A DNA stretch of 63,268 bases, counting the filler, from Asterionella formosa (Eukaryota): NCBI GenBank assembly GCA_002256025.1. It is 9 parts of 9 records of this genome, joined end to end, with 100 filler letters (N's around TTAATTAATTAA, not from the genome) between each part and the next. Parts side by side here need not be neighbours in the genome. Positions count along the whole stretch, not along the records: positions 1 to 6,960 come from NKIB01012564.1; 8 more parts are not named here. One strand, given 5' to 3'. Positions 2,090 through 61,442 of the stretch are shown here, piece by piece; the stretch's first letter is position 1; each line of letters starts with the position of its first letter. A program made the translations under genes and the position numbers. The notes beneath the pieces were generated by a model. The model saw only the letters and a program-made list of their open reading frames with translations. It did not search any database and was not told where the DNA came from.

Positions 2090-4379
2090 GACGAAATTCT
2101 ACCAAAGTAGTATTTTTCTGTAGGGCTCCGGTAATGTTCTACTCTGGACAGGTCAATACTGTCCGGTACCCCTCCCTTGCTTGACCGTGGTGAAAATATG
2201 GTATAGAGAAAGGCAAAAATTCTACCCAGTAGTACTGGAGGTAGAATTTTTCTTAAAATTTTGGTAGAATATTCTACCAACGGACCGATGGAACCCTGCA
2301 GTATGCCATGGTATTGTCGAAGTACCGGTAGTGGTGCCAGTACCAGGGTACCTGGTGCAGCACTGGTACTGGTACCTGATACTGGTACCCTGGTACCAGG
2401 CATGTGTAGGTGGTGAGTACTTTTGGGCACAACTCGTACCTGTACCTGCGTACCTGGTGCACTGGCTGTGTTGTGTCATGTTGAGGGATTATAATAATGG
2501 TAAAACATCATGATTGCATCCCTGTCAAAAGGCAGTTGTTTTCTCATTTCCTTGGCCATTTTCCTGAGACAGAGTGTATGGACCAATGCACTAACCCAAA
2601 AAACCAAAAAACAGTGGGTTTTCTGCTATGAACTGACAATCCAGCAAATGCTAAAGAAAGATCTAGACAATTCTGCAAGATGATGTGCATGCAGGAAAAT
2701 CATGAGTTTTGACAATTGAACAATGATAAATTGTCAAAACAGGATCTCTAAGTAATCATTAACACATACAAGTTGAAATGAATGCTCCTGAGATGATATT
2801 GTTTGAATGAGGGTTGCACATATCGTGGTGGTCAGTGCTGGGCAGTGTTCCTGATAAAGTTGCTTTTGCTGCAACAAATGCCAACAGCAACCCAAAATGG
2901 AAATGTCTACCATATGATATCAAGGTGATCAATCCTAAACAATGTCAGAGGTAACAAACAGAGTTGAATGATTAAAACCAGTGAGCTAAAAAGTTTTTTA
3001 ATCTATTTTCGATCGCTTGGTTGAGCTGGGCTTGAAAAAATGATGATGTGAGCCCTGTATGTCATTGTGAACCTTTCTAGTCACCTAGCAAGAGTACCCA
3101 TGATGTGCAAGACATCGGGGATTATAAAACATTCTTAGTTTATTTATTTCAAGTTCAATGCTGACTTTGAGACTGACTAAGTATATATTACTCATGAATT
3201 CCTGGTTACTAGAGTATAAGTTCTACTTTCTTTGTAGAGGTGACCGTTTAACCATAAGGAAATCACTGTATGATATCCTACTTAGAAATCAAACATTGTA
3301 ATAAGTGTTCTGAAATGTGTGTTTATGCCTTTTACTAGGCTAAATGTTAGTAGAACATGTCTATAGCTGATGAATCATATAGTATCTGGGGTTGGTTTAC
3401 ATAGCCACACTATCCCAATATGTCAGATCCATTCTTGAGCTACTAGCTAAAGTTCTACTTTAGTAGAGCTTTTGGAATAGTCAACATTTGCTATGTTTGT
3501 TGTAACTTTTTAAATAGCCTTATGTGTACTAGGCTACCCAGCCAAGCAATGTACCATAGGTCCATGTTGCACAGCTTGCTCTAGGAACCAACAAACCAAC
3601 AATCAAGCAGGTATTACGGACAAACAAGCAAACATGGATGTGGGTCCTGATTATAAAAGTAACCTTCCAAGACACCAAACTAAACTTGTTCCTTGGTAAG
3701 AATAGGAAGTTGGAATTTCAGAACGAAAAAACCAGAAAGGCTACTATTTACAAGCAGCAGGGCAGGGCAGGGAGCCGGATGATGAAATATGCATCTACTA
3801 TTGGCAGCACAAGGTTGTCTGGGATGCAGTGGTGACTCTACTAGCTAGTAGTTTGAGTGGGTACATGGCACATGTAGCCCTAGACTAAATCTATGAGACA
3901 CATGGTCAGGATAAGATTGTTACTCACATTCTTGTCAACCAAATGTTGAAAGGTTGCAGTGGTGGTGGGCATCCACAACTACAGCCGTGTTAAGCTAGAT
4001 AAATGCATATACTACTAAAAAATAACATACATCCTTAATTCATTAAATTCAAATTTCATTTTCAATGTTATGTACCTTGTTAATTCATTGCCTGTTTCTT
4101 ACCTGGTATAAACACCAGACCAGTTGAATCAGCATTACACACAACAACGAAGCTACTAGTACCTGGTAGCTAAATCCGGCAACACCAGGTGCTGGTACCA
4201 GGTACCTGGAACATACCGTAGTACCAGGTACCAGGTACTTGGTACCAGCAAAGGTGGCACCGCCCACTCCCACACAGTGCATGCTTTGTACGTGAATAAT
4301 GATAGTTAACTAGTGCACTAGTTTTCACTAGTACGACAAAATATGGTAGTATTGGGGGTAGAATTAATTGTCAATACTG
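2090..4379 (+). mobile_element. Degenerate CryptonS-like element, family A, internally deleted copy
   Basis: 2380-2512 and 2510-4379 align with 14255-14395 and 15108-16990. About 710 bp of the recombinase region is missing at a TCAT microhomology (~2510). GGTAGAAT/ATTCTACC motifs occur near both ends. The left boundary is approximate. Confidence 0.65.
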
Positions 4380-8907: not shown

Positions 8908-11024
8908 CGTCTGCAAATAAAAAGTATCATGCATATAGGATCAAGGGTATTGTACGCTAAGTGGCACGGGATTTTCGTATATATGATAATTTTTGGATCA
9001 AAAATATGATCATGGTATCTTGTAACTATGATGATTTATCTTAATATTTTACCGACCTTGAAGTATAATGGTAATAAGAACATTATCATCACACAATGTA
9101 TATCAACTGATCAACAATATTTCCCATCAATATCATAAACCTTCTCATATTATTTTCACTTCTCGTGATTGCCTGATGTAAATTATAACTACAACGTATC
9201 CTAAAACCAGCTCGACTCTATGCTATCATGTGAATTGTTTCATTGTAAATCTATCGTAAACATGATCATAATTCTAATCAAAAGCATTGTTCAAAATAGA
9301 TTGAAATGGATCGTAATTCAACTAGTATCTAATTAAGCAATGCTATCTATTAATCTACATGCCAGCGACCCAACGTTTCTCTCTCTACTCGGCTCAATGT
9401 ATATTTTTCCTGTCTCACCCTTTTCTTCCTCTTTTCTGAATCTTTTGCCAAGATTGTGCCAAGCAATGCCTTACTAATGTTGTGTCTCTCTCCCTGCTGT
9501 TAGTGTCATTGTGAACTCGCCGGCTATTCCGTTTGATCGGTTTTATTTTCCTATGCATGCAGTTACAGTAACAATGAGAAGGAATGATTTGTTAGCTAGT
9601 GATGTTACAATGACACAAGAACACGCAATTCTACCGTTTCCTCTTGCTTTACTTACCACAAATCAATGCAACTGATGCATAAGTCTGTAATAGTAACTTG
9701 TCAGTAAGCCAAATTCTTGAATAAGTAAGTTTCGGGTATCCAATGTTGTCGAATAAAACTTACCGGTTCATTTTTGTCAGCTTAACTTTGAGAAAAGGTA
9801 AACATTTTGTCAGTTTTGTTCCAACAGAAAAGAATAGGTCCAACAAGCGACAAGAGCACTTGTGCAATTTTGTTTTGTTTTACATTGGTGCTCCTCAACA
9901 AGCAAAACGAGCTGTTGAATCAACTGAGAAAAAAGGAAATTTGCGTTTAGTTAACAATTTGTTGTTGTGCTGCCTGCCTCCCAACGATTTTCATCCAAGT
10001 ACCACATTGATGGCTTCATTACCTTATTCATTCTCCATCCTTCGAATGCGCAATTTGTCGAAGCCCCAATGTTTTTCGTTATGTATTGCGTAAATTTTCT
10101 TTTCTTATCATGTGCTTTACTACGACGTATCTTTTCATGAAGTTAACATGACAGAACGATTTCAAGAATATATATGCCATGAATATAGTAATAAAATTTG
10201 TAAATATATATATATATATATATTAAGTGTTATACATTTAAAAATTCAAAGGCGCTCTCGATATGGAACATCTGATATGGTTGAGATGGCCATACTCGCA
10301 TACACATAATTCGAAAATACTCAATGAACTATATGTCCATTGTTTTCCACGACTACGTGTACTGGAATTGTTTCTGAAATTTGTTTGCATCGATATTTTC
10401 TACGTCCGTTGAAACTAATTATTTAGACCCTTCAATTGCCGCAAGGGTTTTGGTAGCAAATTGTTAAAGCCACTTTTTTGGTCCGGAGCCCTTCATGTGT
10501 ACCGGTACATAATATGACAATAACAATATATCATATATAGTATATACAGAGTACCAGTAGCAGGTAGTAAGTGATAAACTGGGGGTAGTCGGAGTAGTAA
10601 ACTAGCAACAGAAAACCATATGTTCAGGACTGTTGCTACTGCGGTGGCACAGTAAATCATCATAGTATTAGGATCATATGATCATAAAACTAAAAACCAA
10701 TAAAACACCATATGTTCAGGACTGTTGCTACTGCATTGGAACAGTAAATCATCATAGTTATAGGATTGTATTGTTCAATGAACTCAATCACTACAAAGGT
10801 CGCAATTCGGTTCAAAAACAGTCCATACAAGGTTATCAAGACTCTTCAAATTCAGCAGCCTTATCAGAACGTCGTTCTCGCTTAGCTAAAATTGAACCAT
10901 CAATTGTCATAAAGGTTGTGAGTTTTAGTTGCTTTCAAGACCAAGAAGTTTTGCTGTGAACATGTAAGTTTGATGTTTTAGTTTGTGAATTGCAGGTACT
11001 GCGAAACAGAAATATCAATCAAAT

Positions 11025-14110: not shown

Positions 14111-16996
14111 TTGTTTCATGAATTTGGTCATGCCTTTTAAAACCGGTACCAGGGTTTTTTGTAGTTTACCTTTGTACACAGTGCTAGTTGACTGCTAGTA
14201 CACTAGCTTTCACTACGGTCTTAAAAGGTTGCACTGGTTGAATTTTTTGCATGTACCACCCTGGTACTGGTACCTGGTAAGGCATGTGTTGCTGGTGAGT
14301 GCTTTTGGGTACGACTCGTACCTGTACCTGTACCTGTGTACCTGGTGAACTTGCTGTGTTATGTTTAGGGATTATACTAATGGTAAAACATCATAAATTA
14401 AAATAAACTTGAACATCAGTACAATTAAACATCAGCATAGCAACAAGCAATGTTGACCAGGAGAGTAAATGAACTGACACATTCCCATGCTTACAAAAAT
14501 GTACTTATTTCTATGATGTTGTACAGGGAGGTTATGGCAAATAGCCAATGATAGTAGTACTAAAAGCTATGAGTTTAGTGTAGTAGAGGAGCCTGGGGAA
14601 AACAAAGATGATGATCAAACACTTGGCCAGTATTCTTCCATTAACTATTACTGCAAAAAAGGCAATGTAGTATTTTATGCCACATTTTCTTTTCACTTGG
14701 AATGTAATTACCCACAGTGGAAATTCAACAATGTTATGTGCCTGCTGTCAATGACCTTGTCATCAAAAAGGCCATAAAACAGAATATGTATGCAGACAAG
14801 ACAAGGGAAAATTACAAGCAAGGCAGCCTCTAGAGTCTAACATTTAGCAAGGTTTCAATCATGATGGTCATCCTTTTCTCATTCAAGTATAAAATATCCA
14901 ATTCATCAATGGTATGAGCTGCCTGTGTGTGTGTTGTGTCTGTCAATTCCATGTGGTCAGCCAAATTGACAATTGCTTCCAACTAACAAGAATACTAACT
15001 GCAAATATTCGACTCGACTCCTTGTCGCTCTGATGGCCAAGCTGCATCTGTGGTGTTGAACGCAAATTCTAAGGACAAGAGGGATTCCGCGCCAAGCCAG
15101 GTTCTCATTGATTGCATCCCTGTCAAAAGGCAGTTGTTTTCTCATTTCCTTGGCCATTATCCTGAGACAGATTGTATGGACCAATGCAATAACCCAAAAA
15201 ACAGTGGGTTTTCTGCTAAGAACTGACAATCCAGCGAATGCTAAAGAAAGACTTAGACAATTCTGCAAGATGATGTGTATGCAGGAAAATCATGAGTTTT
15301 GAAAATTGAACAATGGTAAATTGTCAAACAGGATCTCTAAGTAATCATTAACACATACAAGTTGAAATGAATGCTCCTGAGATGATAATTGTTTGAAAGA
15401 GATTCGCACATATCGTGGTGGTCAGCGCTGGGCAGTGTTCCTGACAAAGTTGCTTTTGCTGCAACAAATGCCAACAGCAACCCAAAATGGAAATGTCAGC
15501 CATATGCTATCAAGGCGATCAATCCTAAACAAGTTCAGAGGTAACAAACAGAGTTGAACGATTAAAACGAGTGAGCTAAAAAGTTTTTTAATCTATTTTC
15601 GATCGCTTGGTTGAGCTGCTGGGCTTGGAAAAATGATGATGTGAGCCCTGTATGTCATTGTGAACTTTTCTAGTCACCTAGCCAGAGTACCCATGATGTG
15701 CAAGACATCGGGTATTATAAACCATTCTTATTTTATTTGTTTCAAGTTCAATGCTGACTTTGAGACTGACTAAGTATATATTACTTGCTCATGAATTCCT
15801 GGTTACTAGTAGAGCATAAATTCTACTTTCTTCGTAGAGGTGACCGTTTAACCATAAGGAAATCACTGTATCATGATATTCTACTTCGAATTCAAACATT
15901 GTAATAAGTGTTCTGAAATGTGTGGTTATTCCTTGTACTAGGCTAAATGTTAGTTGAACATGTCTATAACTGATGAACCATATATCTGGGTTGGTTTACA
16001 TAGTAGCCACACTAGCTATCCCTATACTATGTCAGATCCATTCTTGAGCTAGCTAAAGTTCTACTTTAGTAGAGCTTTTGGAATAGTCAACATTTGCTAT
16101 GTTTGTTGTAACTATTTAAATAGCATTATGTGTACGCTACCCAGCCAAGCAATGTACCATAGGTCCACCATGTCACACAGCTTGCTCTAGAAACCAACAA
16201 ACCAACAATCAAGCAGGTATTGCGGACAAACAAGCAAACATGGATGTGGATCCTGATAATGAAAGAAACCTTCCAAGGCACCAAAACTATATTTGTTCTT
16301 TGGTAAGAATGGGAAGTTGGAATCACCGAAAAAAAACCAGAAAGGCTACTATTTACAAGCAGCAGGGCAGGGAGGATGAGGAAATATGCATCTACTATCA
16401 GCAGGCGCAAGGTTGTCTGGGATGCAGTGGCGACTCTAGCTAGTTTGAGTGGGTAGATGGCACATCTAGCCCTGTATTAAATCTATGAGACATGTGGTTT
16501 GGATAAGATTGTTACTCACATTCTCGTCAACCAAATGTTGAAAGGTTGCAGTGGTGGTGGGCATCCACAACTACAGCCATGTTAAGCTAGATAAATGCGT
16601 ATACTACTAAATAATTACATAAATGCTTACTATATTAAATTCAAATTTCATTTTCAATGTACTGTACCTTGTTATTTCATTGCCTGCTTCTTCCCGGTAT
16701 AAATACCAGACCAGTTGAATCAGCATTACACACAACGACGCTAGCAAAATCCGGCAACACCAGGTGCTGGTACCTGGTACATACCGTAGTGCCACGTACC
16801 GGTACGGTACCAGGCTACTTCATGCATTGTAACAGCATCGCCCCTGGTAACCCTGGTACCAGCACGGTGGCACCGCCCACTCACACACAGTGCATGCTTT
16901 GTACGTGCATCATGATAGTTAACTAGTGCGCTAGCTTCCACTACAACAAAAAATGGTAGTATTGGGGGTAGAATTAATTGTCAATACTGGCACAGT
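14111..16996 (+). mobile_element. Degenerate CryptonS-like element, family A, longest copy (recombinase remnant ~14500-15520)
   Basis: Remnants KKAM*YFMPHFLFTWNVITHSGNST, PAVNDLVIKK, QARQPLE, NSKDKRDSAPSQVLI, CFLISLAIIL, GSLSNH and TYRGG parallel the family-B recombinase motif order. It ends TTGTCAATACTGGCACAGT. Confidence 0.7.
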
Positions 16997-18759
16997 AACG
17001 CTACATACCGGTGATCATGTGTACAGGTATTACTGGTATTTTTGGATAGTTACGATTCCAAGAGGGATAACTGCAGTTTCTCTCCAGAAATGAGGTCCTC
17101 AGCAAATCCGAAGATAGAACATACCCCTAGTATACCGGTAGTACTCGGAGTACCTGCAAGTTGCGTTACCGGTAGTTTTCCTTTCTTCGTGTGCCACCGG
17201 TACACATTTCTAAAACCGACAGATATTTCACGACTCGGCTGCCGTACAGAAATCAATGTACCGCTACAGGTAACAGTCGTATGCACATGCATCATGACGC
17301 CCTTTGTTGAGAAGTTAATTAATAGCAACCTCATGGAGTTCAATCATCACTTAAATAATTCAAACAATCATGTTCTTTTGTTCTTTAGTATGCATGTCTA
17401 TCTAACCGACCTGATTTATCAGCTTGCAACAAATGGTGAACTCCCGCTGACAACTAATAAATCGTGACATGGCTGGTGACAGAGCGAGGCTCAGTCGTTT
17501 CCATGCAACAATAAAAAAATTCCTGGAGACACAAGCATTAAGATTGATTATATTAGGCGAATACATTCGAAGGAATGTTATAGCAAGGAGAACAGGGTGG
17601 TTAATCGATGATTGCTAGCAATCAATAGGACTCGAATTTGGCAGAATTGAAGGCGAAAACAACATGCAAACTCGTCTATAATATGGTTAACAGAATTGAT
17701 CAGACAAATATGTAGTCAAACTAACATTAACAAGGCTATAACTTCTATTCGTCAACATTCTAATTTAAAAAGTATTGCCACAGATGCAATGAGCTGTTAG
17801 AATGGTAGCTGCTTTACCAACATGCAACTGACGCTAAATACTACAACACTAAGTTTACTTACAACTTTGCTGAAGAGCTAGTAAGTATATATCAGAGATC
17901 GACAACGCAGCATGGGGTTGATTGCTTTAATGAGCGATTGTTGCTTTATACTGCAGAAATGACAAAGGGGAACTGTGGCAAACTGTAGACCGATCATATG
18001 GTTTCGCAATATTTAATGACAAGGACAAGAAAAAGTTCATGCCGACAAGATTCTATCATCACACACTAGTACGTACTGACGTGTATGTATGCGCATCCAT
18101 CAGGTACCTGGTACCAGGTACCGGTATTACTCCAAACAAATAAAATTCATACCGTCCACTATTATTCTCTTTTTATCTACCAGTACATACATCTCCACGT
18201 CCGATATTTATATAGGATGTGCTCCTGATTAGTCCAGATATTTGGAGTAAATCTGCTCTGCTCTTCCCAGGACAATATAGTACAGGGGGGGGGGGCTACA
18301 GGTAGTATTCTGAGTAGATCCTTCCTATACAGAAAAACCTACCTAAGCAAGGCCTTGTGGTTACATGATGCATTGATTATAATGAAGCAGTATGACTTAG
18401 TAAGCAATGTCTACAATAGTCCCACAAGCTGGTGCAACAAGGGAGCTGTACTCTAACGCTAGTCTATTGAGTGACTAGAGTATAGCACTCCCACTACTAG
18501 AAGATTACTCCATCAGACAAGTAGTAAGTGAGTGGGACGGACAAATGAGTGCAGTGATTGATACAACGAGGAGTGACCAAACAACTTGCTCGATATGTGA
18601 GTTTTTCTGTCGTAAATATTCCTAACCCTCTCTCCTCTCAGACGGCTGAAATACTGCAGATGGTCCCGATGAAAACTTAAGAATGTGATATCCTGCCCCA
18701 CTGGTCAAGTTGAGTGCCAATGAATAAAATAGATATTTAACCCATCTCCATGTTGTTAT

Positions 18760-25185: not shown

Positions 25186-25349
25186 CTGTTTATGCAGTAT
25201 TTTAATTCATTCTCAGCATGGTCACATCTGTCATCAATGGTGGGAATGAAAATCACATCGGCTCAGTACCAGGTAGGAGTACTTTAGTCTACCGGAACTC
25301 CCCTGTGGATACCTGTACCGACATACCGGTACTGGTAGTACCAGGGGTA

Positions 25350-27319
25350 CCGTAAATCCCGTGCTTCTGTCTTCCACCACCTTCCGGTCGCCTCAGTGTA
25401 CATCTGGTGCTACACACCCAAATATTTTACATGTTCAGAAAATAGAACATATTATTTTTCTATTATAAGAAGCTCCCAGTATGTATCATATTATTTTGTT
25501 CGGCACCATCATGAAAATGACATCCCTTCGAGATGGAGAAATACTTGGCCTACGCGGTGTCACAAATGGGCAAAACTGTGTGCAACATCGATGCTGTGGA
25601 GCTCATGTTTGCATCAATGATACAGTGCGTTTCAAGCTGACAATGGTGGAGATTGGTGAGGTGAAGGAGCTGCAGATGGCGATGAAGGCTGTGGTTGTCC
25701 GAGATGGAACAGAGCTGTGTACAGTCGGGTTTTTGGGCAAGAACATTGCTGCTTTGGAGAAACACGATTTCGATATAAAGACAAGTTTGGTCAAATCATT
25801 GAGCTGTATGATGAAAGTGACAATCAAACAAAGAGGGCTAGGAGCAACCACAACCTGGGAATGGCTTCGTTTCGACTTTTTGATGACATCCAAATTCAAG
25901 AGTAAATGAATTCTAAATGGTGCTTCTTTGAAAAAGGTTCAAAAATCTTGATTGAACAAGGATATATTAAATACATATTAACTAGTAGTTGAACATTTTA
26001 AGACTTGAAACTGGTTGTATGACTTAATTTCTAGTCATCAACAAAACAAATAATATCTTTCCATTTGCAAGTCAGACATGTAGTTTGAAAACAATATATT
26101 TAACAAATAAAAGAGTTAATCACTAAATGTTATCCAAATAGACTACAACTAAAGTAAACCAGCTTTGTATCCAATGCTGGCCCAGGTATTTGTGATCGAA
26201 GACACAGTTACCTGGGCACATGCAGCCTCCACCCATTGGGCAACATTATGCCTCTTAACTTTTTCATTTTCTATGTTTTGAACCATAAAATTCTCCGATG
26301 CAGCCTGCACATAGCCTTTGAATGGCTTGTTGACGCCAACATCCAGTACTTGAAGCTGGGATGTGTATCCAGGGGTTATATAGTCGACCTCAGTGCCACA
26401 AGATTTAATGGCATCTACACAATTGCCAACTTTGTGGACCGAAAAGTCGTCCATTAGCAGGTAAGTTGGCTCTCCTAGTAGGAATCCCTGAGTCCAGGGC
26501 TTCCAAACCTGCTCAATCCAATTCAAGAAGACAATTTGGTCTACCCAAGCCCTGGCCTGGCAAGAGTATTTCACTGAAACCGGAAATTCTTTTGGTGGAT
26601 TGATGGCTAACTGCCTGCTTATCCGTCCATCACTGATTCCCTTGAACACAATGAATGGAGGCAGCTTTCCTCCACTTAGAGTGAAGTCTTCATTCCAATT
26701 GTCCTGGCTCCACGTTTCTCCAATGTCAATGATCCATACAAGTCAAAATTGATGTTTGTCTCATCAATATTGACAATGCACCTTCTTGGGTCCATACCAA
26801 AGGTCTGAATCTGTTGATTGGCATATGTTAAAAACTCAATCACTCTGGCTTGGTCGAGTCTTGTGATCTGAGCAACATGTGTCACTGGCCGAAGAACAAT
26901 ACCCTCTTTCCCCATCCTATTGATCTTTTAATGGAAGCCAGCAAAGATGATGAACTCCACAATAATCTCGCCTTGACATCATGTAGACTGAGGGTCGAGG
27001 GGTGATCATTCAAGTGCACAAATGCGCTCTGTATCTTCGAATTACAGCGCCGTAGAACGCCTGTACAGGGCCGTCCAGTCCCTCCTCTGTATTGTCCTCA
27101 ATAGGCTCTGACTGCTTTGGTTGAGGCCATCAGAGTCAATTTGAACACAATGATGTGCATGTGTAGTATGAGTAGCAGCCGTCACTGCAGTGTCATTGAG
27201 CCAACTGATTTTCGTGTACTAGCAAAAAATAATTGGTGGTTTATATGAAGGCTATGTAGGCTAGGGTTTCAGGGTTTATAAAAAGAGGGGGACGAAATAT
27301 CGAAATAGGGGGACGAAAT
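25350..27319 (-). mobile_element. pogo-like (Tc1/mariner, DDE_1) DNA transposon with a convergent accessory ORF; one end interrupted by a Copia LTR
   Basis: TA|CCGTAAATCC terminus at 25348-25360. The transposase is in pieces: IVNIDETNI (26676-26915), KLPPFIVFKG, AWVD...LLMDDFSVH...GYTSQLQVLDVGVNKPFK (26149-26649). GGGGGACGAAAT is repeated just before the LTR at 27320. Confidence 0.8.
25511..25905 (+). pseudogene. Small Cys/His accessory protein (~130 aa) with one frameshift near 25760
   Basis: Joining frames gives MKMTSLRDGEILGLRGVTNGQNCVQHRCCGAHV...VRF...MKAVVVRDGTELCTVGFL...YKDKFGQIIELYDESDNQTKRARSNHNLGMASFRL. Confidence 0.55.
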
Positions 27320-28194: not shown

Positions 28195-30361
28195 CTATTG
28201 CTTGCTTATTACTCCGACTACCGGTACCGCTTTTCAGTTTCACGATCATACAATCCTAAAACTATGATAATTTACTATGGTGTTCTATTGCTTGCTTATT
28301 ACTCCGACTACCGGTACCGCTTTTCAGTTTTACGATCATACAATCCTAAAACTATGATGATTTACTATGGTGTTCTATTGCTTGCTTATTACTCCGACTA
28401 CTGCTTTTTAGTTTTACGATCATACAATCCTAAAACTACGATGATTTACTGTTCCACTGCAGTGTGCTATGGTAGCAACAGTTCTGAACATATAGTTTTC
28501 GATTTGTTTTTAGTTTTATGATCATACAATCCTAAAACTATGATAATTTACTGTTCCATTGTAATTGCAACAGTCATGAACATATGGTGTTTTTTACGAT
28601 CATACGATCCTAAAACTATGATGATTTACTGTCCCACTGCAGTAGCAACAGTCCTGAACATATGGTGTTCTGTTGCTAGTTTACTACTCCGACTACCCCC
28701 AGTATATCACTTACCACCTGTTACTGGTGCTCTCTGTATATATATGATATATTGTTATTGTCATATGATGTACCGGTACACATGAAGAGCTCCCAACCAA
28801 AAAAGGGGCTTAAACAATTTGCTACCAAAACCCTTGCGGCAATTGAACGGTCTAAATAATTAGTTTCAATGGACGTAGAAAATATCGATGCAAACAAATT
28901 TCAGAAACAATTCCGGTACACGTAGTCGTGGAAAACAATGGACATGTGGTGCATTGAGTATTTTCGAATTATGTATATGCGAGTATGATCATCCCAACCA
29001 TATCAGATGTTCCATATCGAGAGCGCCTTTGAATTTTATAAATGTATAACACTTAATATATATATATATATTTACAAATTTTATTACTATATACATGGCA
29101 TATATATTTTTGAAATCGTTCTGTCATGTTAACAAACAATGCCTGCTGCTTCATGAAAAGATACGTCGTAGTAAAGCACATGACAAGAAAAGAAAGTTTA
29201 TGCAATACATCACGAAAAACATTGTGACTTCGACACATTGCGCATTCGAAGGATGGAGAATGCTTAAGGTAATGAAGCCATCAATGTGGTACTTGGATGA
29301 CAATCGTTGGGAGGCAGGCAGCACAACAACAAATTGTTAACTAAACGCAGCCACATTTCCTTTTTTCTCAGTTGATTCAACAGCTCGTTTCGCTTGTTGG
29401 GGAGCACCAATGTAAATCAAAACCAAATTGCGTAAGTGCTCTTGTCGCTCGTTGGACCTATTCACTTCTGTTGGAACAAAACTGACAAAACGTTTACCTT
29501 CTCTCAAAGTTAAGCTGACAAAAATGAACCGGTAAGTTTTATTCGACAACATTGGATACCCGAGACTTACTTATTCAAGAATTTACTGACAATTTACCGT
29601 AATAGACTTATGCATCATTTGCATTGATTTGTGGTAAGTGAAGCAAGAGGATACGGTGGAATTGTGTGACGTTGTGTCAATGTAACATTACTAGCTAACA
29701 AATCATTCCTTCTCATTGTTACTGTTTCTGCATAGGACAATAAAACCAATCAAACAACGGAATAGTCGGTGAGTTCAGAGTGTCACTAATTGCAGGGAGA
29801 AATGCAAGACATTAATCACTGCATGGCGCAAGATTCAGAATAGAGGAAGGAAAGGGCAAGACAGGATCAATATACATTGAGCCGAGTAGAGAGAGAAATG
29901 TTGGGTTGCTGGCCTGTAGAATCATAGATAGCATTGCTAAATTTGTCAATTAAATTAAGATCCATTCCAATCCTTTTTTAACAATCCTTGTAATTAGAAA
30001 TATGATCATGTTTAAGATAGATATACGATGAAACAATTCAAATGATAGCATATAAATTAGCTGATTTTAGGATGCATTGTAGTTATAATTTACATCGGGC
30101 GATCACGAGAAGTGAAAATAATATGAGAAGGTTTATGATATTGACGAGAAATGTTGTTGATCAGTTTATTTACATTGTGTGATGATAATGCTCCTATTAT
30201 CATTATACTTCAAGGTCGGTAACATATTAATAAATCATCATAGATACAAGATACCTTGATCATATTTTTGATCCAAAAATTATCATATATATGAAAATCC
30301 TGTGCCACTTAGCATACGATACCCTTGATCCTATATGCATGATACTTTTTATTTACAGACG
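28195..30361 (-). mobile_element. Second copy of the Plavaka-like element end, inserted into a Copia gag; includes a ~80-90-bp tandem array (28195-28690)
   Basis: Inverted near-copy of 8908-10770. The array unit contains GATCATACAATCCTAAAACTATGAT. Gag coding sequence resumes right at 30362. Confidence 0.75.
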
Positions 30362-33300
30362 GTTGCAGCAAGGGCAATACTGCTGACAAGAAGGAGCTCA
30401 CTCCTGAGCAGAAAGAAAAGAGGAAAATGATCAAGTGTTTCAAGTACCAATGCATGGGACACTACGCAAGTGAGTGCACTAGTAACAGTGCATCTAAAAA
30501 TAATAAAAGCGAAGAGAACAACACGACTACATCTACCCACCAGCAAGGAATGTTCGTCGCCACGTGTGTCGAAATTAGTTACAACGAGGAAGTCAACCTC
30601 GCTCGTGATGTCAGAAATCGCTGGTTGTTAGACAGCAGTGCTACCATTCACATCTGCACAAACGTGCGCATGATGGAAGACAAGAAGCAAGTGAGTGAAA
30701 CGGTTGTGGTAGGGAATGGAACTTAGATAGTATCAACTGAATCTGGTTCCGTGACCATGACGACTACGGATGAAGGAAAACGCTTGAAACTCACCGATGT
30801 GCTTTATGAACCGGAGTCAAGCAGAACATCATCAGTTGACAAGGGTAATCAAGTGATCTTCGAGGACGATAGCATGACGATACGAAACAAGAGCGGCTTT
30901 CTGACCTGCAAAAGAGACAAAACTCGAAAACTTGGAGCAATGTATCATGTCGAAGGTAATCCGATCATCAAGCAAACGGTGATGGAAGTCGAGCCACTAC
31001 AAGAGAACACTACACAACAATCGATTGACAACTACAACGAAAACGATTGGACGAAAGTTGAAGCAAAGAAAACGAAGAAGGGAAAGAACAAATGGAATAA
31101 TCAAAATGGTGAGTTGGAAAATAATTATGTGATTGTCGATATTAATGAAGCGCATGCGATGCTTGGTCATGTGGGCGAGAAATGTTTGCACGATACGGCG
31201 AAATTATTTGGATGGAAGTTGAGCGGCATCATGACAGTGTGCGCAGGCTGTGCGGCACCGAAAGCGAAAGCACGAGCCGTCCCAAAAACAACGCAAGAAA
31301 AATCGACGGTACCTGGAGAGAGACTGTTTGTGGACGTCACCAGACCCTACGCGAAATCCGCTGTAGGTAATCAGTACTGGGTCATGGCAGTGGACGACTA
31401 CCGGTACACAAGAAAGCGCTGGAGCTATTTCATTAAAAAGAAGAGCGATATCGGAACAGTCATTGAAGTTTTACTATCAAGTTTAGCCGGAGCCGGTCAC
31501 AAGACAAAGTATGTCCGTTGCAATGATGCAGGCGAGAATACTAAACAATTGAGAAAGGTATATGAAAATCGCGGAATAAAAATGGAATTTACTGCCCCGC
31601 ACACTCCACAACACAATGGTGTAGTGGAACGCGGTTTTGTCATGGTGCAACAGAGGGCATTAGCAATGATGCTAAGTGCAAAACTAACAGATGAGTACCA
31701 AGGGCTATTATGGGCAGAGGCGATACATACAGCTACACGTTTAACAATTAGTACAGTTAACTCAGTAACTAAAAGAAGTCCCGACGACATGTTCTACGGC
31801 GAAATGAATCCAAGAAGGCCCTACAAGTTATACAAGCAATTTGGGCGTGTAGGCTGGGTTGCTGCAAGACACGGCATTAAGAAATTAGACACACATTCTT
31901 TCAAGTGTGTCTTTTTGGGTTATTCAGAGGACCACTCCCAAGATACATATCATATGTATAATCATGAGACTAACACTGTAATCAATACACGCGATATTAA
32001 GTGGATTGAGTGGCATGGAACAAATGCACCTACGGACGGACTAGAAAAAATCTACAAGGACAATGCCAAAGAGAAAGTTGCAGTTCAACCAGAAGCTGAA
32101 GTCAATAATGATGGATTATATGATGATTTCTACAATGAAGATTAACTACCAGAAGTTTCAGACAATGAGGAAGATAACGACAACAAGGATAAATCAACTA
32201 CAGACACTGGAACAACAAAATCTACTACAAGGAGTGAAGAAATCTCTGACCTAGAAAAGAGAAAGGCTGTGAAGCAACAAGCAAAGACTAAATACCCAAC
32301 TACGCTCCAAACTAAACAGGCAAAGTTGGAACGAGAATTGAAGAAGTTGGACTCATCATATAATCCAACTAAAAGTGTTAAGTTCACTCCAGACACCTCA
32401 TTACCAAATGTGATTGAGGAGGAAGCTTCTTCGAATGAGGAAACTGAAGTATATTTCGTATTCAATGCAAGTCTTGCATCGGACCCAGGTTTACCAAATA
32501 GTTATGATGAAGCGATGGCAAGACCTGACAGAGTTCTCAAGATTCGAAAACCTAAGGAATTACGGGTTATTGCATATGTTGATAGTGACTGGGCTGCTAA
32601 TAAAGTAAGCCGGAAAAGTACTACAGGTTTTCTGGTTACCATTGGTGGTGCATTGATCAGTTGGCAATCAAAGGGCCAGCCATCCGTTACGCTGTCAAGC
32701 ACAGAAGCAGAATACATTGCGATGTCGCAATGTGCTCAAGAGATCAAATTATTGCAATGGTACTGAACGAAGTGACAGGTGGTAAAAATATCCTACGAAG
32801 CATTTTACGTGAGGATAATACAGGTGCAATATTCACAGCGAAGAATCAACAACTCAGAACAAGAACAAAACACATTGATGTTAAGTTTCATCATGTCAAG
32901 AACATGATAGATAAGGGTGCGTTGCATATTGTTTTTCTAAGATCAGAAAACAATCCAGCAGACATTTTGACAAAGAATGTCAAAGAGCAGATTTTTACAA
33001 GGCTATCCGGACCTGTACTGAGCGGTACAGTTTTAGAACTTCTTGAACATGGTAACGAGGAGGATGTCAAGAATATAGCATCAATGGCTATAATGAGTCA
33101 CAAGGACTGTGGAATCGATTATAGTCCAATGAGTTAAATGGTGCATTCCCATGTCAAGAAGCTTGCTAACGAGATTGATGTCTTAGATCAATCAGAAGAA
33201 GGTTCACATCAACGAAAATGGAACACGAAGAACAGGTTTTCGAAGTGTAATGAATGGGATTGAAACTTAGTTTTAGTTTAAGCTTATAATTAAGAAGCAG

Positions 33301-34272: not shown

Positions 34273-35135
34273 TGTTGAGGGGAACCTTGTCGTGAATAAA
34301 GGTGAACTAGTACATTATTATGACTATTCTCTTGCTGTTTTGAGTACATCGTTGTTAGCACTCACGCATGTACCTACCGGTAATCTGGTGGCTGCGCTGG
34401 TATGGTTCGTACGGCGCATGTATGGAGCATCATATGCAGATATTAACACACCCTCACCAGCAGATTCAGGCAGAAGAACAGGAACCGGGGTGGAGATGAT
34501 AGCAGCATCGGAAGCCAAGCACGCATAATAGTTAGGAGGACTAGGGAGGGATGGAGGACAATGGAGATATTGCGGGCGCATCAACGTATGATGGGAAGCG
34601 GGATGATGTTTCTTAGTGAAATAATTGGCACGACTCAAACTACCTTTTTTCCAGTATACAAGAAATTGGCCTTGGCGAACACAATCGTGTACCCAGTAAT
34701 AACGCATATCCATAGCTTTGGAGCGTTTTTGTTGGGTGGTATCATTGGCGATGCCAATGGCAGCGCTGTTATCGGTGACAATATGGGTAGAAGGTTGGGG
34801 ATGACCAAGCTCAGCAAGAATGTTGCGAATATCATATGCCTCTTTGCCATTGTGGGACAAAGCAGCTAATTCGGCCTCAGCAGCACTTGATAAAACCTCC
34901 TTAAGAATTTGACAGTGTACATAAATAGCACCGTTAAGAGGAGGGATGGACGTAGTGAGGCAAGGCGGAGACAGGGGTTTACAGCTGAGAAAGTGAATGC
35001 CGGCAACACGGGAGCGACAACGTGTTTCAGATAGATAGGAGGCATCGCTTTCAACATGGAGGACCATGTCACTGGCAGTAAAGCGAAGTGTGCTGGCTTC
35101 AGGATGAGTGGCACAATATTTGAGAAGGTGAGTAA
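34273..35135 (-). mobile_element. CoDi-type Copia 3' end: RNase H, PPT (GAGGGTG) and 3' LTR (34273-34448)
   Basis: SDASYLSE..RSRVAG...SSAAEAELAAL...TDNSAAIGIAN...KRSKAMDMRYYWV. The LTR is homologous to 27320-27486. Confidence 0.9.
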
Positions 35136-35479: not shown

Positions 35480-37013
35480 CTACTGTCCCAGCTCCAGGTC
35501 ATTGTTGTCACAAAACAGAATTGTTGGGCTTTGTAGCCTCACTGAATCCTCCTCCTCTCGCCAACTGGTATCGCAAAACTCTAATTCGTCTTCGTCATCT
35601 TCTTCAAAGGTCCCAATTATTTTCTGGATCCCAGAGGACGATCGTCGAAAGACTTGCGTCACAAACAATCCAGGTCGTGATGCTACATGCACTTCCGGCA
35701 CATTCCTTCGATTGGGTGAAGGTCCATCAGATAATGTACGTCGTAAGGTTGGTCTGAGATTCATTGGGTCTGATGAATTGGTCTCAAATGATGAACCGAG
35801 TGACTGGTGGTGTAGTTGTGACTCAATATCTGTGGAGTCGTCATCCACAAAACTTGAACCACTTTTTGACAAGTGTGAGTATACTCTGGATGAAATTCGT
35901 CGAGTAGCTGGAAAGCGGAACATTCCACCTGAGCCATTCTGTCGCACACCCTCAGACACGACCCTACGTAATTTGACGGGTCGTTTCAACTTCAATTCAT
36001 CAGTACTAGCAGTGGACGACAGGTCATCTTCTAAATCAAATGTTTGACTCAAATGCGAGTATATTCCCGACGAAACTCTCCGGAAGGCAATTTGCAAGCG
36101 AGTTGGTTCCATGATAGTTGTAGTAGTAGTTGTTCCATCCAAATCCCCTGCTATCCACGATGCTTGTCGTGTGACTATACGAATCAGGCCATCCATGACC
36201 ATGTAGCGGCCTCCTGATGGTTCTGGTGGCATACTGGTTGTGAGAGAATCCACATTGGCTTGTCGTTCTAAATCAATAATTTGGGCTCGACAGGAGGGAC
36301 AATCCTCATGCTTTGGATTTGTCAACCATTCCATGAGGCAGTCCGTATGAAAGACATGTCGACATACATTCGAACGGCTCCACGTGACAGTGTCGCCAAT
36401 ATGAAATGCATCCAAGCAAATGCTACAAGTAGAGGTGTTAGGGTCTGTGCTATGGACAGAGTGCTGGTCCTCTCCTGATACTGAAACGGATCCGTCCAGG
36501 TCGCCCAGTGTGAGGTTGGCTTTGTCGTCGCAGGAAATGACTCGCTAAGGCACACATGGCACAGTCGTTGCATTGCGTGAGCAATCGAAACGAAGCAACG
36601 TAACCTATCGTACAGCGTAGCATAGCATGACATGGCAGGGTCCCACTTACTTTGGTAATCAACCCTTGGTCCATCGCTCGCTTCCTCACTTGCGGGTCCT
36701 TGCGCAATTCCGCCAAACGTTCCTCGCGTTCTCTGGCTCGTTGGGCTATCCGGAAACTGGCATCGGGAATGCTGGGGCGACAGAGGAAGCAAAAGAGCAC
36801 GAAGAAGCACCAGGTGAGGAACTGAGCAGGTGCTGGGAGGGGAGTCGGAGTGCCGGTACTTGCTGGGCTGTCACTCAACGTCGAATTGTTGGTCATGTCG
36901 TAGAAGCTATTGTTGTTATTGTTGCTGGAAGAAACAGAAGCGTTGAGGTTGCTTGCAGCTGCCTTATTATTCGTCTGCAATAATTCAATGGAGAACCAAT
37001 CGTCTGATGACAT
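35480..37013 (-). CDS. Transmembrane RING-H2 (ATL-like) E3 ubiquitin ligase, ~475 aa, join(36651..37013,35480..36544)
   Basis: Exon 1 MSSDDWF...FLTWCFFVLFCFLC (TM)...GLITK; intron GTAAGT...CCTTAG at 36545-36650; exon 2 CSICLDAF...CRHVFHTDCLMEWL...CPSCR, then a long S/R-rich tail. Splicing restores the frame. Confidence 0.88.
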
Positions 37014-38889
37014 TAGAGAGCGAGTGGAATGGAAGGTAGGTATAGGTAATGATGTGTGATGTTGTAATGTCAAGTGGACTTGAGTCACAATGTAATTTGG
37101 AACGAAGATGAAAGAAAAGGTGCAAAGTATTATGTAGTACCTGGTACACCAGGGCACACGACCAGAGGATATGATGGTTCTTGCAGTTCTCGTCGAGTCT
37201 CCGAGATCGTAACACAGTGTGATACCGTACGATCTCAGCTGTACAAAACATATCGTGCATGTATACACAGCATACCGGTAGTACCAGCACTAGGTACCAG
37301 GTACCAGGCTCCTCTGGTCCTCCATCCAACAGTACATAATACATAGGAAGCACCGGCAAGAAAAATTTTACCCTACCAGGTACAATGGCGCCGGTTGTAC
37401 CTGGTACAGGTATACCGATACATAATATTCGTAGTATTCAGTTCTTGATATTATCATCTTCTCGGCTGTTCGCGTTCTCAACGCAAGCAGAAGTGCGCAG
37501 CGACACACGACCAGGAGAACAAGAACGTGAAATCATGATGGTGTCGTCCGTGTCGTCATCATGTCATGCAAGCCGATCGATCTTTTGCTTACGTCATACT
37601 TCATAAACCAGTATGTATGTATGTAGCAAGAAATCTTCTACGCGCGCCGTTAGAAAGAATGATGAACGCTGATTAGCTGAATCATGCTGTAATAAAAAGT
37701 AGACTGTACGTTACCAGAACAAGCTAGTAACATATATGTACCAGGTACAGTATGGACGACGACGGAGTACCTTATAAAATGTCGTGTAGAATTTGCCGTA
37801 TGTACTCTTCGTAGCTGTTTGACGGCGTACTGAGTCCTGAATGCTGAGTGACGAATTCTTGAGCCATGAAGAGATGCTCGATGGACGGGGAAGTCTGATT
37901 TCCGTTTCTGTTCAGTTGTGTCCCTCTATTCACTCAAATGAATTCGCTGACTCCTCCCTTGCTGTAATCAAGTTGGAACAGCGGAGTGACTGGCAGAGTA
38001 CGAGATGAGGAAGAAGGTATTTGGTGCAGGTTTATTGCGTTCCCTAACAATCAGGAATCTGATCTGATTCAATCTGGTGGCAGTAACAGTGCTGCGACTC
38101 GCCCGTTGATGTTAGACTGGAAAACTGATGGGTGATTCTATTAGAACGAATTTAAGGAACTATCACACATGTACCAATGCCTTGTTAGAAAAGAAACAAA
38201 GACCAGTTGCCTGCTGCTTCAGCATCGCTTCACTCCTCGTCGGAGTTTCCGCATTCATAGGTTTGTTCATTCGGAGAGAAGCCAAATTGGTTGGTTCTAA
38301 GGTTTCAAATTCAGTTTCTTTCGCTATGGGCTAGACAACCGACTGTCCATCACTTTATTCAGTGAATGAAACCCACTATACCTGTACTTCGAGTAGTACA
38401 CTAGACTATAGCGGTATGTCTTTGACGTCGCCATCCTCGATGACAAATAGTCATGCTGATGCCTAATTAATGATGTCGTCATGGTCGGCGACCAATTCAT
38501 AAGAAGAAGTACCGGTATACACAATATAAGTATTTGGATGAAACATCAAAAAATGGCAATTGTTATGCAAAACAATCTTCATGTTTCCCTCATTATCTAT
38601 AAATATAAATTAAATGGAACCATGGTCCCCAGTATGTACTTCAATCACCACCACAACCACCAAGGCTTCCAACCTCGACCATCACCGCCTCGTTAAGACA
38701 ACAGCACGTCGACGATGCGGGTGTACACTGCTCGGCAACGACGGAGACATTGCACAAGCAGGGCTGTGGCGCCTCTGCAAAACACCATGAAAACAATTGT
38801 TTTTACAGTTCATGAGTGTGCAGAATGTATAGACATGCGCTCTAGTAGGACATTTTGCTTCAATTTATGAATCATATTCATACTAGCAG

Positions 38890-39993: not shown

Positions 39994-40982
39994 TGCATTC
40001 CAATCTATTTACTTCCTGGTAGACTAATGGTCTCATGCATCATGGTCGGAATGCTATTTTTGCAACAAAAATCGCTGCACACCTATCGGAGGCGCTATCA
40101 ACACATGTGAATTCCGCGGCGGCATGATATCATAAAAATATCCCACGGTTATAATGCCGTTTCCTTTACCGGTAATTTAAAACCCCAACATCATCTACCG
40201 GTACATATCATATTCAGTACCTGGTACCTGGTACCCTGGTACAAGGTACTATTGTCTACCTGTTACAGTGGTCCGTATTTTAGGAACCTCCAATAATTAA
40301 TTAATGTGGACAGGATTACTATCGTCAGACGTATTGAAGAAATTTAGGTAATGGGGAACAATTTGAATAAAACATAAATACCGGAATATATTTAAAAAGT
40401 TGACTGATGGCTGAAACAGCAATCATGGTGTTTCTTGTGTGCGTTTCGTTGATTCCTTCTTAAATTGTTTACTTCAGCCAGTTCGCTTCTTTCTTTCGAA
40501 TACGATATATTTTATGCCGTGTTGGGCACAAAGTCACAAGGGCACAAAGTACATGTTACTGTAGGTTATCCACTGAGTTTATAGTCTACCCGGTACCTGG
40601 TACTGTACATTTAATATATTTTGTACTTACACCACAGTAGCCCAATTACGGGTGGTATTCGGAACAGGAAATAACTTTAAAATATACATAATATGGTAAT
40701 ACGAATACCGTATGTAATATAAATTTACCGGTAAAGCAGTTTGCTTGTTACCCTGTACCTGAACTGTAGTAGCAGTACCAGGTAGACCAGGTGGTACTGT
40801 CCCGTACCGTACCGGTACTTCAATTTGAAGTATCACCGCAGGCAGAACATCATGAATCTGCTCATAAATTGTTAAAAACTGTCAGCATATTTTCGCTCCA
40901 ACAATTCAGCAGCAACCATACACCAACCACAGCATCAGATTTCATTCAGCAAAATCACACGACCAACACAAGAACTAGAATC

Positions 40983-58882: not shown

Positions 58883-59608
58883 ACTGTGCCAGTATTGACA
58901 ATTAATGCTAGTACCCCCAATACTACCATTTTTTGTTGTAGTGAAAGCTAGTGCACTAGTTAACTATCATTATGCACGTACAGNNNNNNNNNNNNNNNNN
59001 NNNNNNNNNNNNNNNNNNNNNNNNNNNNNNNNNNNNNNNNNNNNNNNNNNNNNNNNNNNNNNNNNNNNNNNNNNNNNNNNNNNNNNNNNNNNNNNNNNNN
59101 NNNNNNAGTGCACTAGTTAACTATCATTATGCACGTACAAAGCATGCACTGTGTGGGAGTGGGCGGTGCCACCTTTGCTGGTACCAGGTACCTGGTACCT
59201 CGTCTCACCAGGGGCGATGCTGTTACAATGCGTGAAGTACCCTGGTACCGGTACCTGGTACTACGGTATGTTCCAGGTACCTGGTACCAGCACCTGGTGT
59301 TGCCGGATTTTGCTAGCTTCGTTGTTGTGTGTAATGCTGATTCAACTGGTCTGGTGTTTATATCAGGTAAGAAGCAGGCAATGAAATAACAAGGTACATT
59401 ACATTGAAAATGAAATTTGAATTTAATGTAGTAAGTATGTATGTTATTATTTAGTAGTATACGCATTTATCTAGCTTAACACGGCTGGAGTTGTGGATGC
59501 CCACCACCACTGCAACCTTTCAACATTTGGTTGACGAGAATGGCTGTGAGTAACAATCTTATCCTGACCATGTGTCTCATAGATTTAGTCCAGGGCTACA
59601 TGTGCCAT
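58883..59608 (-). mobile_element. 3' end of Crypton family A (third copy, inverted)
   Basis: Reverse complement of ~3865-4379 and ~16460-16996, with the same terminus TTGTCAATACTGGCACAGT. Contains a 123-N scaffold gap. Confidence 0.8.
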
Positions 59609-59609
59609 T

Positions 59610-61442
59610 CAACCAATCAGAATATGTGTATTGATGCGGAAACTTACCCTGGACTCTCTTCGGACAGAGAATTATTCAGCAAAAACACCTAAGCAAGACT
59701 CTAAGTCTACGAGAACGTTTTTGCACATACTAATTTGGATTCCAATAATTTGGCAACTGTTGAAAAAGCCGATCAGGTCGACTTTTTGGAAGTGGATTGC
59801 TCTACATCTACGGGGTCTCATGACGATTAAAATAGATAGCCGTGTACCCTACAACGTCAGGAGTTAACTTCTGGAGAGAAGTGGCAGTTATGTATCGTAG
59901 ATTTTTTGAAAAGCTTTGTAGCCCCTTTTTGACTAGTTTTGTGGTAGTTACGAATCTATGATACACAACTGCCACTTCTGTCCAGAAATGGGGTCCTTTT
60001 ACCATATCTGTATATAGATCATACCCCTAAGTCGAGCAATGACAGTATCTAAGCATATGCAAAGTGGTCGTAATGGTGATAGCTAATTCGACCTTTAACT
60101 ATTTTATTTACTTGTATGTGATGTGTGGATTGACATACATCATAAAAATATTTTGGGAAAAAATGACCTTGCAATTTGTAACTGTGGGGCCGCAACCTTA
60201 CGGTTCCTGCATTTGAACCCCTAGGCAAAAATTAAAACATTGCTTAGGGTTGCCGAAATTCCCTGGAACTAAGAACTTTTATGCACTAATTTTGAATATC
60301 GATGATTCCGTTTGAAATTTTTAAATCAGTGGAAATTTGCGCGTGCGTACATAGATTCCTTCTCATATGCTCTGAAATACACATATATAGATTCTGCATC
60401 GCTGACCGTACATAGAGTTACAGTTCTGGTAGTATTCTCCAATGAACAATTATGTGTCACATGTACGACCCGGCGTCTCGGAAAATACCGGTATTTGAAA
60501 GTGCTTTCTACTTATGTAAGAGATATGTACTGGTACTTCTTGTACACAACCGGTACTACGTAACCAATGATGATAAGCTACCGGTACCTGCAAGTTGCGG
60601 TAATTTTGCTTGAACTTACAATTTAATATGGGATAAAGGTAGCTAAACCTTTAGTTTGAGCAAAATTACTGCAACTTGCTGGTACCTGGTACCAGGTACC
60701 AGGAGTGTACCATGTACCTGGTAACAGGTACCAGGTCGTGGATATCGCATCGGCCAACGACACCCAAGAAAATGTTTCATGTGTATCCAGTGTGGCGGGC
60801 GTGGGATTGCAAAACCTCGCAAACCGGGCTATTCGAACGAATGTAAGTATAACCAATCAGAATATGAATAATGCAGCGGGCCCTGACAATGGAACTTTTT
60901 GTACAGCAGATTTTACGAATAAAAATTTGAGAACAAGACTACCATTCCAATGATGACTTTTCGGTGATTAGTGATTCTGATTCCGATTCTTTGGAGGCTG
61001 CAGAAAAGGCCGATTTTGTCGAATTTTTGGACGACAGTAGCTCAATGTCGGCTTCTGAACGCGATTTCAATACGACATGGTAACTTTCAAATAGCATCAG
61101 TATATAACTTCCGGCGAGAAACTGCAGAAAGGAACTTCGGTTTTTACTATAACAAATAAACAGATTTCCCCCGAATTTTCTAGTCTTTTTAGCATAGTAA
61201 AAGAACGGAAGTTCCTTTCTGCAGTTTCTCGCCAGATCCTATATCCTGACGATATATCAAGTGGACCAACACCTACTTTGTCCGAAGACTGTATTTAAGC
61301 ATATGGAAAGGGTTTCTAATGGTGAAAGCTCCGTTGAGCGTTATACATATTGATTTATATGTGAAAAGTACGTGTATGATTAGTTTGACTGAATATTTTT
61401 TTTACCCTACCTCGAGCCAGGGGTTCAAATGCAGGAACCTTA
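59610..61442. repeat. Cluster of MITE-like repeats: diverged ~600-bp direct repeats (59610-60200, 60850-61440) and a 21-bp inverted pair GGTTCCTGCATTTGAACCCCT (~60203, ~61419-61439)
   Basis: Shared AACCAATCAGAATATG and TAAGCATATG..AAG...TAATGGTGA.AGCT blocks, TTA next to the inverted repeats, and an internal ~27-bp inverted repeat at 61110-61235. Confidence 0.55.

Follow-up and report, generated by a model that had tools for sequence, protein, structure and literature searches.

What process repeatedly writes a few fixed bases into TA dinucleotides of a diatom genome and leaves them stacked in tracts is the question raised by a 63,268-nucleotide stretch of Asterionella formosa DNA (assembly GCA_002256025.1), which we refer to as the window. 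It consists of nine pieces of ~7 kb from one genome, joined by spacers of the form N44-TTAATTAATTAA-N44 and with an extra N gap at 58984-59106, and the "all contigs" of a preliminary description of this DNA are these nine separate stretches. That description had reported micro-insertions which duplicate a TA and add a fixed filler, and had proposed footprints of a self-targeting element or a templated process as their origin. Here we use "unit" for a TA-framed CCGG or CCWGG (W, A or T), of which the window contains 66. Our analysis makes it likely that the micro-insertions are excision scars of TA-targeting pogo-like transposons (Tc1/mariner/pogo superfamily), with two or more sources or target rules having to be invoked, along with regional hotspots and a modest additional attraction to existing scars.

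The TA duplication and the fixed fillers can be seen directly where a filled site in one repeat copy has an empty counterpart in another. All of the paralogue comparisons listed earlier were found again, at most a few bases from where they had been placed. The word TACCGGTA, in which the filler is CCGG, lies on the plus strand of a Copia integrase open reading frame (ORF) at 31399..31406, where it adds the residues RY beside the DD motif (VDDY-RY-TRKRW compared with VDDYTRKRW in the other copy, which has an empty TA at 22092). It also occurs in a long terminal repeat (LTR)-like sequence at 34375..34382, for which the other copy has an empty TA at 27386-27387, and in an array of 90-bp tandem units at 28219..28316, where two units are filled (28219 and 28309) and the third is empty at 28399-28400. 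Single-base fillers, converting TA to TA-G/C-TA, distinguish ~15806 from 3207, ~16001 from 3402, 3441 from 16049 and, as a second insert in the LTR-like repeat (~34308-34312), ~34308 from 27450; plain tandem duplication of TAG or CTA fits the inserts at 15806, 16001 and 3441 equally well. A change from TA to TAGCTA at ~16013, compared with 3411, was seen after by-eye re-parsing of a 7-base gap left by the aligner.

Several such inserts are combined at 4154-4172, in copy 1 of a repeat family with further copies 2 and 3 in the window. Here, the stack TA-C-TA-G-TA-CCTGG-TA-GC-TA has 13 bases beyond the single TA found within GCTAGC in both copy 2 (16742-16743) and copy 3 (59314-59315, minus strand), and the three inserts CTA, GTA and CCTGGTA described previously are present. 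The adjoining GGTACC-rich tract (4196..4237) holds one CCAGG unit more than copy 2, whose neighbouring unit is CCTGG, and, with a W unlike that of the unit beside it, the addition at 4194 is no plain slippage copy. Both copies of the duplicated TA are kept in the pairs 27386/34375, 28399/28219, 22092/31399 and 16742/4154, and likewise at 36007 in a population sample (X11) considered below.

Alignment of nine paralogue pairs gave 58 gap rows, two of which represent one event pair counted twice in a self-overlapping tandem pair. Among non-tandem insertions of at least 3 bases that duplicate the preceding dinucleotide, eight fell at TA (TACCGG three times, TAC twice, TAG twice and the 13-base stack), compared with seven at the 15 other dinucleotides together, and a 7-base GGTACCA is a ninth compatible TA event. 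Re-reading of four rows merged by the aligner yielded more TA events (GTA at 3382, CTA and GTA at 3841, GCTA at 3416), and where a one-base filler could be read it was C or G in ten cases out of ten. Five of the 3-base TA events are also explicable as tandem duplications, an ambiguity that a TA-S-TA process (S, C or G) would show by chance in ~40% of its events, as it requires no more than an identical adjoining base. Other 3-base tandem duplications (GCT, CCA, GTT, CTG and CGA) are present, which indicates that ordinary slippage operates alongside.

The same fillers stand out when words are counted against 200 second-order Markov simulations and, for TACCGGTA, also 100 dinucleotide shuffles. 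TACCGGTA occurs 34 times compared with 0.37 expected by shuffling (largest of 100: 2) and 0.78 by the Markov model, while TACCAGGTA, with filler CCAGG, occurs 15 times against 0.42 and TACCTGGTA, with filler CCTGG, 17 times against 0.38, giving 32 TACC(A/T)GGTA words where ~0.8 are expected. Among the 120 CCGG in the window, 34 lie in a TA..TA frame and the runner-up flank pair accounts for only 4. One-base fillers are enriched for C (99 compared with 69, simulation maximum 89) and G (91 compared with 65, maximum 85), but not for A (75 compared with 70) or T (86 compared with 68). Likewise, filler GC (TAGCTA) is enriched (27 compared with 12.9, maximum 24), whereas CG (TACGTA; 11 compared with 11.8) is not, and partial fillers show a mild excess (CCG plus CGG, 14 compared with 6; CTGG plus CCAG, 14 compared with 3.5; CCTG plus CAGG, 11 compared with 3.1). 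The excess over chance suggested for fillers C, G, GC, CCGG and CCWGG is therefore borne out, as is the spread of the signature, with units in all nine pieces at a density of 1.06 per kb. The GC filler is part of the same system, yet CC...GG tips leave TAGCTA unexplained. As separate observations on this word, 11 of the 27 TAGCTA are stacked with other units, and TACTAGCTA is found five times (3441, 3839, 29689, 46221 and 47752) compared with ~0.2 expected.

Both events for which polarity could be established are insertions and not deletions from an ancestral tract. The integrase RY is absent from 28 of 28 aligned homologues, ranging from diatoms to plants, and from the second window copy; the search gave 30 matches, of which P0004 and P0029 have no alignment over this segment. 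For the 13-base stack, copies 1 and 3 agree with each other, against copy 2, in three derived characters (GAA, one GGTACCA more and an A), which makes copy 2 the outgroup and shows that the stack was gained in copy 1.

Population polymorphism was observed on piece 6 (6.9 kb), which is present, whole or in part, in 20 runs from 16 studies among the public runs listed, mainly freshwater metagenomes. We placed on it contigs, rather than reads, from four runs of four studies (X4, X5, X7 and X11). The TA at 36007..36008 is empty in the window, X5 and X7, and reads TA-CCGG-TA in X11, where TACCGG is inserted behind 36006 at a depth of 6.47 of 6.47 in one contig. The insert lies within a RING-finger ORF (35483-36544, minus strand) and keeps the frame, and so the claim that the inserts add codons to proteins holds both for the RY of the integrase and for this polymorphic 6-base insert.

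These data also bear on whether the units could be an artefact of assembly, adapter or platform. Tracts do break short-read contigs and gather loose ends, with contig breaks and depth jumps (up to 196) at 37292-37308, 40216-40249 and 40587. However, the continuations at these loose ends and joints are mixed (agreement 0.44-0.63) and hold no element tip, and as such the breaks show no more than that the tracts recur in many places of the genome. Furthermore, contigs from three independent studies span units on piece 6 without gaps (X5 records 16, 19 and 23; X4 record 13; X7 record 31), units also occur in contigs of X11, and two Joint Genome Institute (JGI) metagenome contigs bear the same words. 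As the units are uninterrupted in long contigs of X4, X5 and X7, no single-assembly artefact can account for them, and we regard the probability of any such artefact as negligible. A site occupied in one copy and carrying a scar in another was not found among the paralogues or in the four runs on piece 6, although contigs break at the tracts and this absence means little.

A candidate source is resident in the window. A decayed pogo-like transposon extends over 25348..27230 on the minus strand, with a flanking TA at 25348-25349, a 3' tip CCGTAAATCCC from 25350 and its transposase in three frames. The catalytic ORF (26152..26742, minus strand) matches DDE_1 (PF03184; E 9.4e-18) and has a D..D..D triad whose last two acidic residues are separated by 35 others (DD35D), and since the upstream transposase parts lie in other frames this copy has decayed. 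It adjoins a TACCGGTA / TACCAGGGG tract, its flank (TACCGGTA...TACCAGGGG-TA) being itself a tract. An inverted-repeat search around the ORF did not recover the ends, which were located only through a metagenome relative. Searching metagenome contigs with the DDE_1 ORF gave two (L001 and L002), and L002 contains a complete relative of 2223 bp, TA-CCATAAATCCC...GGGATTTATGG-TA, with 18-nt arms that are 94% complementary. The window copy is 91% identical to it over 1341 bp and has a different flank from L001 and L002, which indicates that the family has moved. TA-flanked terminal inverted repeats are thus present at both ends in L002 and at one end in the window, where the 5' tip was not found at up to 3 mismatches and the 5' end is missing. 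A Pfam scan of the three frames lying upstream (E up to 0.01) matched no N-terminal CENP-B/Tc5-type DNA-binding domain, which is weak evidence as the region is frameshifted.

The tips read TA-CCA...TGG-TA in L002 and TA-CCG in the window. The element with CCT...AGG ends that had been postulated is in this respect half right, as there is a TA-flanked DDE family with CC...GG tips, and the CCT...AGG termini themselves were not found. Two further features of these sequences were noted. A second open frame of ~140 residues lies in the 3' half, on the strand opposite to the transposase (window 25469-25909, plus strand; L002 3342-3755); its DNA is ~91% conserved in L001/L002 and it has no Pfam match. 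L001 and L002 represent the same locus (98.8% identity over 2337 bp) and differ by a CCGG insert outside a TA frame (AAC-CCGG-CCC) and a CTT tandem duplication.

Under the explanation that we favour, an element with tips 5'-CC(A/G)...(T/C)GG-3' would insert at TA and duplicate it, a staggered excision cut would leave behind, on either side, the outermost two or three bases of the tip, and end joining would seal them between both TAs. Two bases per side would give TA-CC+GG-TA, and three-base overhangs overlapping at their last base would give TA-CC(A/T)GG-TA, with the centre resolved either way in a manner comparable to the C(A/T)G of Sleeping Beauty, whose canonical footprints are 'cag' or 'ctg' according to the legend of Fig. 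5 in PMC5224488. Trimming to one base might produce TA-C-TA or TA-G-TA. In a unicellular organism every scar is heritable, and scars would cluster in non-coding hotspots, with new insertions also striking the TAs of old scars to build (GGTACCW)n-like tracts. A filler made of the tip bases of the resident TA-flanked element is consistent with CC+GG and with CC-W-GG, and fails for GC. As no occupied and scarred pair was seen, excision as the writer of the filler is inferred. Also inferred are the overhang lengths, the assignment of families to fillers and the way in which TA-S-TA, above all TAGCTA, arose.

The two main filler classes differ in the bases that flank them. G occupies position -1 of the left TA in 30 of 32 CCWGG units and C position +1 of the right TA in 24, with both present in 23, while among the 34 CCGG units G is at -1 in 13 and both are present in 5 (Fisher p ~2e-6 for G at -1 and ~4e-6 for both). 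In half of the CCWGG units the flank has a terminal GG contributed by a neighbouring unit, and the naive flanks CAG, ATG, TTG and CTG likewise end in G. This suggests either two families, or a 5-base scar that would form chiefly at G-TA-C, the site that older scars create. The CCWGG class was also considered as a GTAC duplication with a CWG filler, and this was rejected given that C is missing from +1 in 8 of the 32 units and that GTAC is absent to the right of the stack at 4154.

Several observations weigh against excision scars of such elements. Since the flank rules differ, a single family obeying a single target rule could not produce both fillers, which removes the single element explaining all fillers that had been envisaged. 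The GC filler, for its part, is not what CC...GG tips would yield. Although CCGG and CCWGG suit 2- and 3-base overhangs of fixed stagger, the fillers CC, GG, CCA and TGG alone are not enriched in the window and CCATGG, the full 3+3 scar, has no occurrence there; TAGCTA is enriched and TACGTA is not, which is the opposite of what simple retention of C...G tips predicts. The window tip CCG predicts CC(C/G)GG fillers, of which just two are present, and the window copy is decayed and without a 5' end, the only complete element being on a metagenome contig of unestablished organism. At ~1 scar per kb, a very large number of excisions would have become fixed, above what is usual for this superfamily, and no excision has been caught as an occupied and scarred pair. 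On piece 6, where 12 of the 19 indel rows between populations were examined, a clean TA-CCGG-TA event accounts for one of the 12; three others fall within a mini-palindrome at 37374-37406 and the remainder are slippage-like or simple.

Some of these points would suit a repair or templated insertion at TA that needs no transposase, for instance a nuclease cut followed by a polymerase copying a fixed short template with no mobile element involved. No occupied-to-scar pair has to be found in that case, the fillers S, GC, CCGG and CCWGG are all palindromic or palindromic with an ambiguous centre, GC is not left over as an exception to CC...GG tips, and differing flank rules for CCWGG and CCGG are no obstacle. 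However, identical fillers are found where the surroundings offer no template (27386, 31399 and 36007), a TA-flanked DDE element with matching CC...GG tips sits beside a tract, and we know of no templated-insertion process of this kind, so that we consider it unlikely. Hairpin P-nucleotide scars of hAT-like elements were rejected by reasoning only, as they would repeat flank bases and not CCGG.

As for the stacking of units, when the 66 units were placed on random TAs of the stripped sequence (300 trials), the mean number of TA-sharing unit pairs was 0.97 and the maximum 6, compared with 9 observed. Stacks are thus ~9 times as frequent as under uniform TA choice, in keeping, in part, with the proposal that insertions re-target their own scars. 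However, among next-unit distances of up to 50 bp, the TA of the scar itself was used 9 times and the ~4.4 other reachable TAs 16 times, a preference of merely ~2.5-fold based on small numbers, which leaves regional hotspots to account for most stacking. Within adjacent CCWGG units W differs in four of six pairs, indicating separate events rather than slippage.

Tracts of this kind occur throughout the window. A pure three-unit tract, TA-CCTGG-TA-CCAGG-TA-CCGG-TA, lies at 18105..18126, a cluster at 37273..37406 directly upstream of a minus-strand ORF that ends at 37268, eight units in a divergent intergenic region at 40167..40817 (where each of the four runs has contig breaks, at 40216-40249 and 40587) and five units in copy 3 of the repeat family at 59182..59286. 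The tracts listed in the preliminary description at 18105, 37290, 40215, 43520, 55015 and 60680 are as described there, whereas that at 2330-2400 is degenerate and not pure.

The placement of the units could be read differently, with the words as selected cis-regulatory motifs, the tracts growing by slippage or unequal exchange of a 7-bp unit and the TA frame being incidental. Only 2 of the 66 units lie inside Pfam-supported ORFs, which make up 21% of bases and 15% of TAs, and units crowd gene-start regions such as 37273-37406 and 39994-40790. A 56-base difference between copies 1 and 3, tried as a clean excision and rejected, is a deletion between direct AGGTACC repeats in copy 1, which shows that tracts shrink as well as grow. 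Against this, clean 6-base insertions are found at naive single TAs in coding sequence, the LTR-like repeat and the tandem array, neighbouring pairs differ in W in the majority of cases and the new unit at 4194 is unlike its neighbour. Depletion from coding sequence is equally expected from purifying selection against insertions, selection does not explain the constant TA, filler and TA form, and we therefore hold this account to be very improbable.

A number of palindromic segments accompany the tracts. The mini-palindrome at 37374-37406 is a near-perfect, TA-bounded sequence of 33 bp with arms of 10 nt (CCAGGTACAA); it resembles two retained element tips, and no matching element was found. 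In X5, X7 and X11 this segment differs from the window by 4+3 bases and three substitutions, with no simple parse as gain or loss of a unit. A TA-bounded segment of 191 bp at 40594-40784 has 10-nt inverted ends (CCTGGTACTG) and could be a small element or two tract remnants. Copies 2 (16806-16851) and 3 (59204-59256, minus strand) of the repeat family share a 38-bp segment with CCAGG...CCTGG bounds beside TA that is absent from copy 1.

Another possible maker of the scars is a hairpin miniature inverted-repeat transposable element (MITE) family, Stowaway-like, duplicating TA and with tips CC(A/T)GCAAG, which would preserve the mechanism and change the family. A MITE of 96 bp (60587..60682; folding energy -47.5 kcal/mol, z -10) lies exactly between TA-CCGG-TA (60579-60586) and TA-CCTGG-TA-CCAGG-TA-CCAGG (60683-60704), and has two possible parses. 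One is TA-CCT...TGG-TA, with tips CCT and, on the opposite strand, CCA, which resembles the element postulated earlier and whose last bases might pair to form CCTGG; the other is CTG-[element]-CTG. A homologue in L002 (1550-1667) is flanked by CAG...CAG, and both of its ends, as well as end fragments in the window at 17151 and 43105, have TAC/GTA-type flanks. However, the bases beside CAAGTTGC in both complete copies (n=2) are 3-bp direct and not inverted repeats (CTG/CTG in the window, CAG/CAG in L002), as from a CWG target duplication, and for this reason the MITE was not counted as a scar maker. Furthermore, the window has no cognate transposase, with no PIF/Harbinger transposase among the 56 window ORFs covered by the Pfam scan. 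We accordingly judge a MITE source improbable, and from its flanks the MITE may instead be a CWG-duplicating user of the tracts or their CCWGG core, not their maker. It had no match in the phage collection.

This permits a more tentative proposal, in which the two families interact. Pogo-like elements would leave scars at ~1 per kb, preferential re-entry at the self-made G-TA-C would seed and extend GGTACCW arrays, and the resulting CCWGG palindromes would become the landing site of the CWG-duplicating MITE. We put this forward as possible, though doubtful as a whole. If true, the scars of one family would be a main source of small insertions and promoter-proximal DNA, and would make the target of the other.

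Scans for TA-flanked inverted-repeat elements with CC tips returned only tracts, the 96-bp MITE and an unrelated 1.7-kb element (8 hits compared with 0-2 in controls). The latter, at 9023-10760, has a perfect 14-nt inverted repeat (ACTATGATGATTTA) beside TA; the repeat recurs on the minus strand at 28524-30361, where its end consists of tandem repeats of 78-90 bp (28195-28669) containing that terminal word, and it is probably another non-autonomous DNA element. The window also holds two Copia-type (CoDi-like) elements, at 21209-25192 and 30543-33844, which have ~73% DNA identity to each other and whose nearest named protein match is from Fistulifera solaris (63% identity, integrase segment).

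The scars that DNA transposons leave on excision are ordinarily an uncommon sight, met with in assays, and those of Sleeping Beauty are known from assays at single donor sites. Transposon scars as such are known, and their density and stacking here are unusual; a literature search at title and abstract level found no published account of the phenomenon, and publications matching the words themselves concerned only primers and barcodes. What is new comprises the flank difference between scar classes, the excess of stacking over uniform TA choice, the polarity tests, the segregating coding insertion, the complete TA-CCA...TGG-TA relative and the caution regarding the MITE. If pogo-like excision is the origin, scars would be among the commonest words of this genome at about one per kb, and would be a leading class of small insertion, making up every 6-base indel and around half of those of 3 bases between window paralogues. 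They would build short palindromic arrays beside gene starts and occasionally add codons. Transposon traffic would become measurable by scars alone, providing a natural system for the study of end joining and target choice in diatoms, and the activity of mobile elements would be linked in a concrete way to the origin of new promoter DNA and of landing pads that other elements use.

Four known systems invite comparison. PHIS elements of the Harbinger3_DR and NuwaI type favour palindromic targets with CCWGG at the centre and create a CWG duplication, which resembles the 96-bp MITE flanked by direct CTG or CAG within GTAC-CWG-GTAC; the window has no PIF/Harbinger transposase among its scanned ORFs, and the MITE would then be a user of the tracts. 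Stowaway-type MITEs are small hairpin elements at TA in gene-rich DNA that are mobilised in trans and leave TA-framed scars, whereas the sole complete MITE of the window may duplicate CWG and not TA. The pogo superfamily, including Passer, shares with the resident element a DDE_1 domain with 35-residue spacing, TA flanks and short terminal inverted repeats. However, Passer leaves footprints of 0-4 bp (PMC9976928), which the 5-base diatom filler exceeds, and the window element has no detected N-terminal DNA-binding domain. With the Tc1-like Sleeping Beauty (PMC5224488), the diatom scars have in common a TA duplication that is kept, a filler drawn from both tips and a centre of A or T. They differ in that the diatom fillers are CCGG (4 bases), CC(A/T)GG (5 bases) or a single C or G, and in that they are fixed in a natural genome at ~1 per kb, where they are stacked upon one another.

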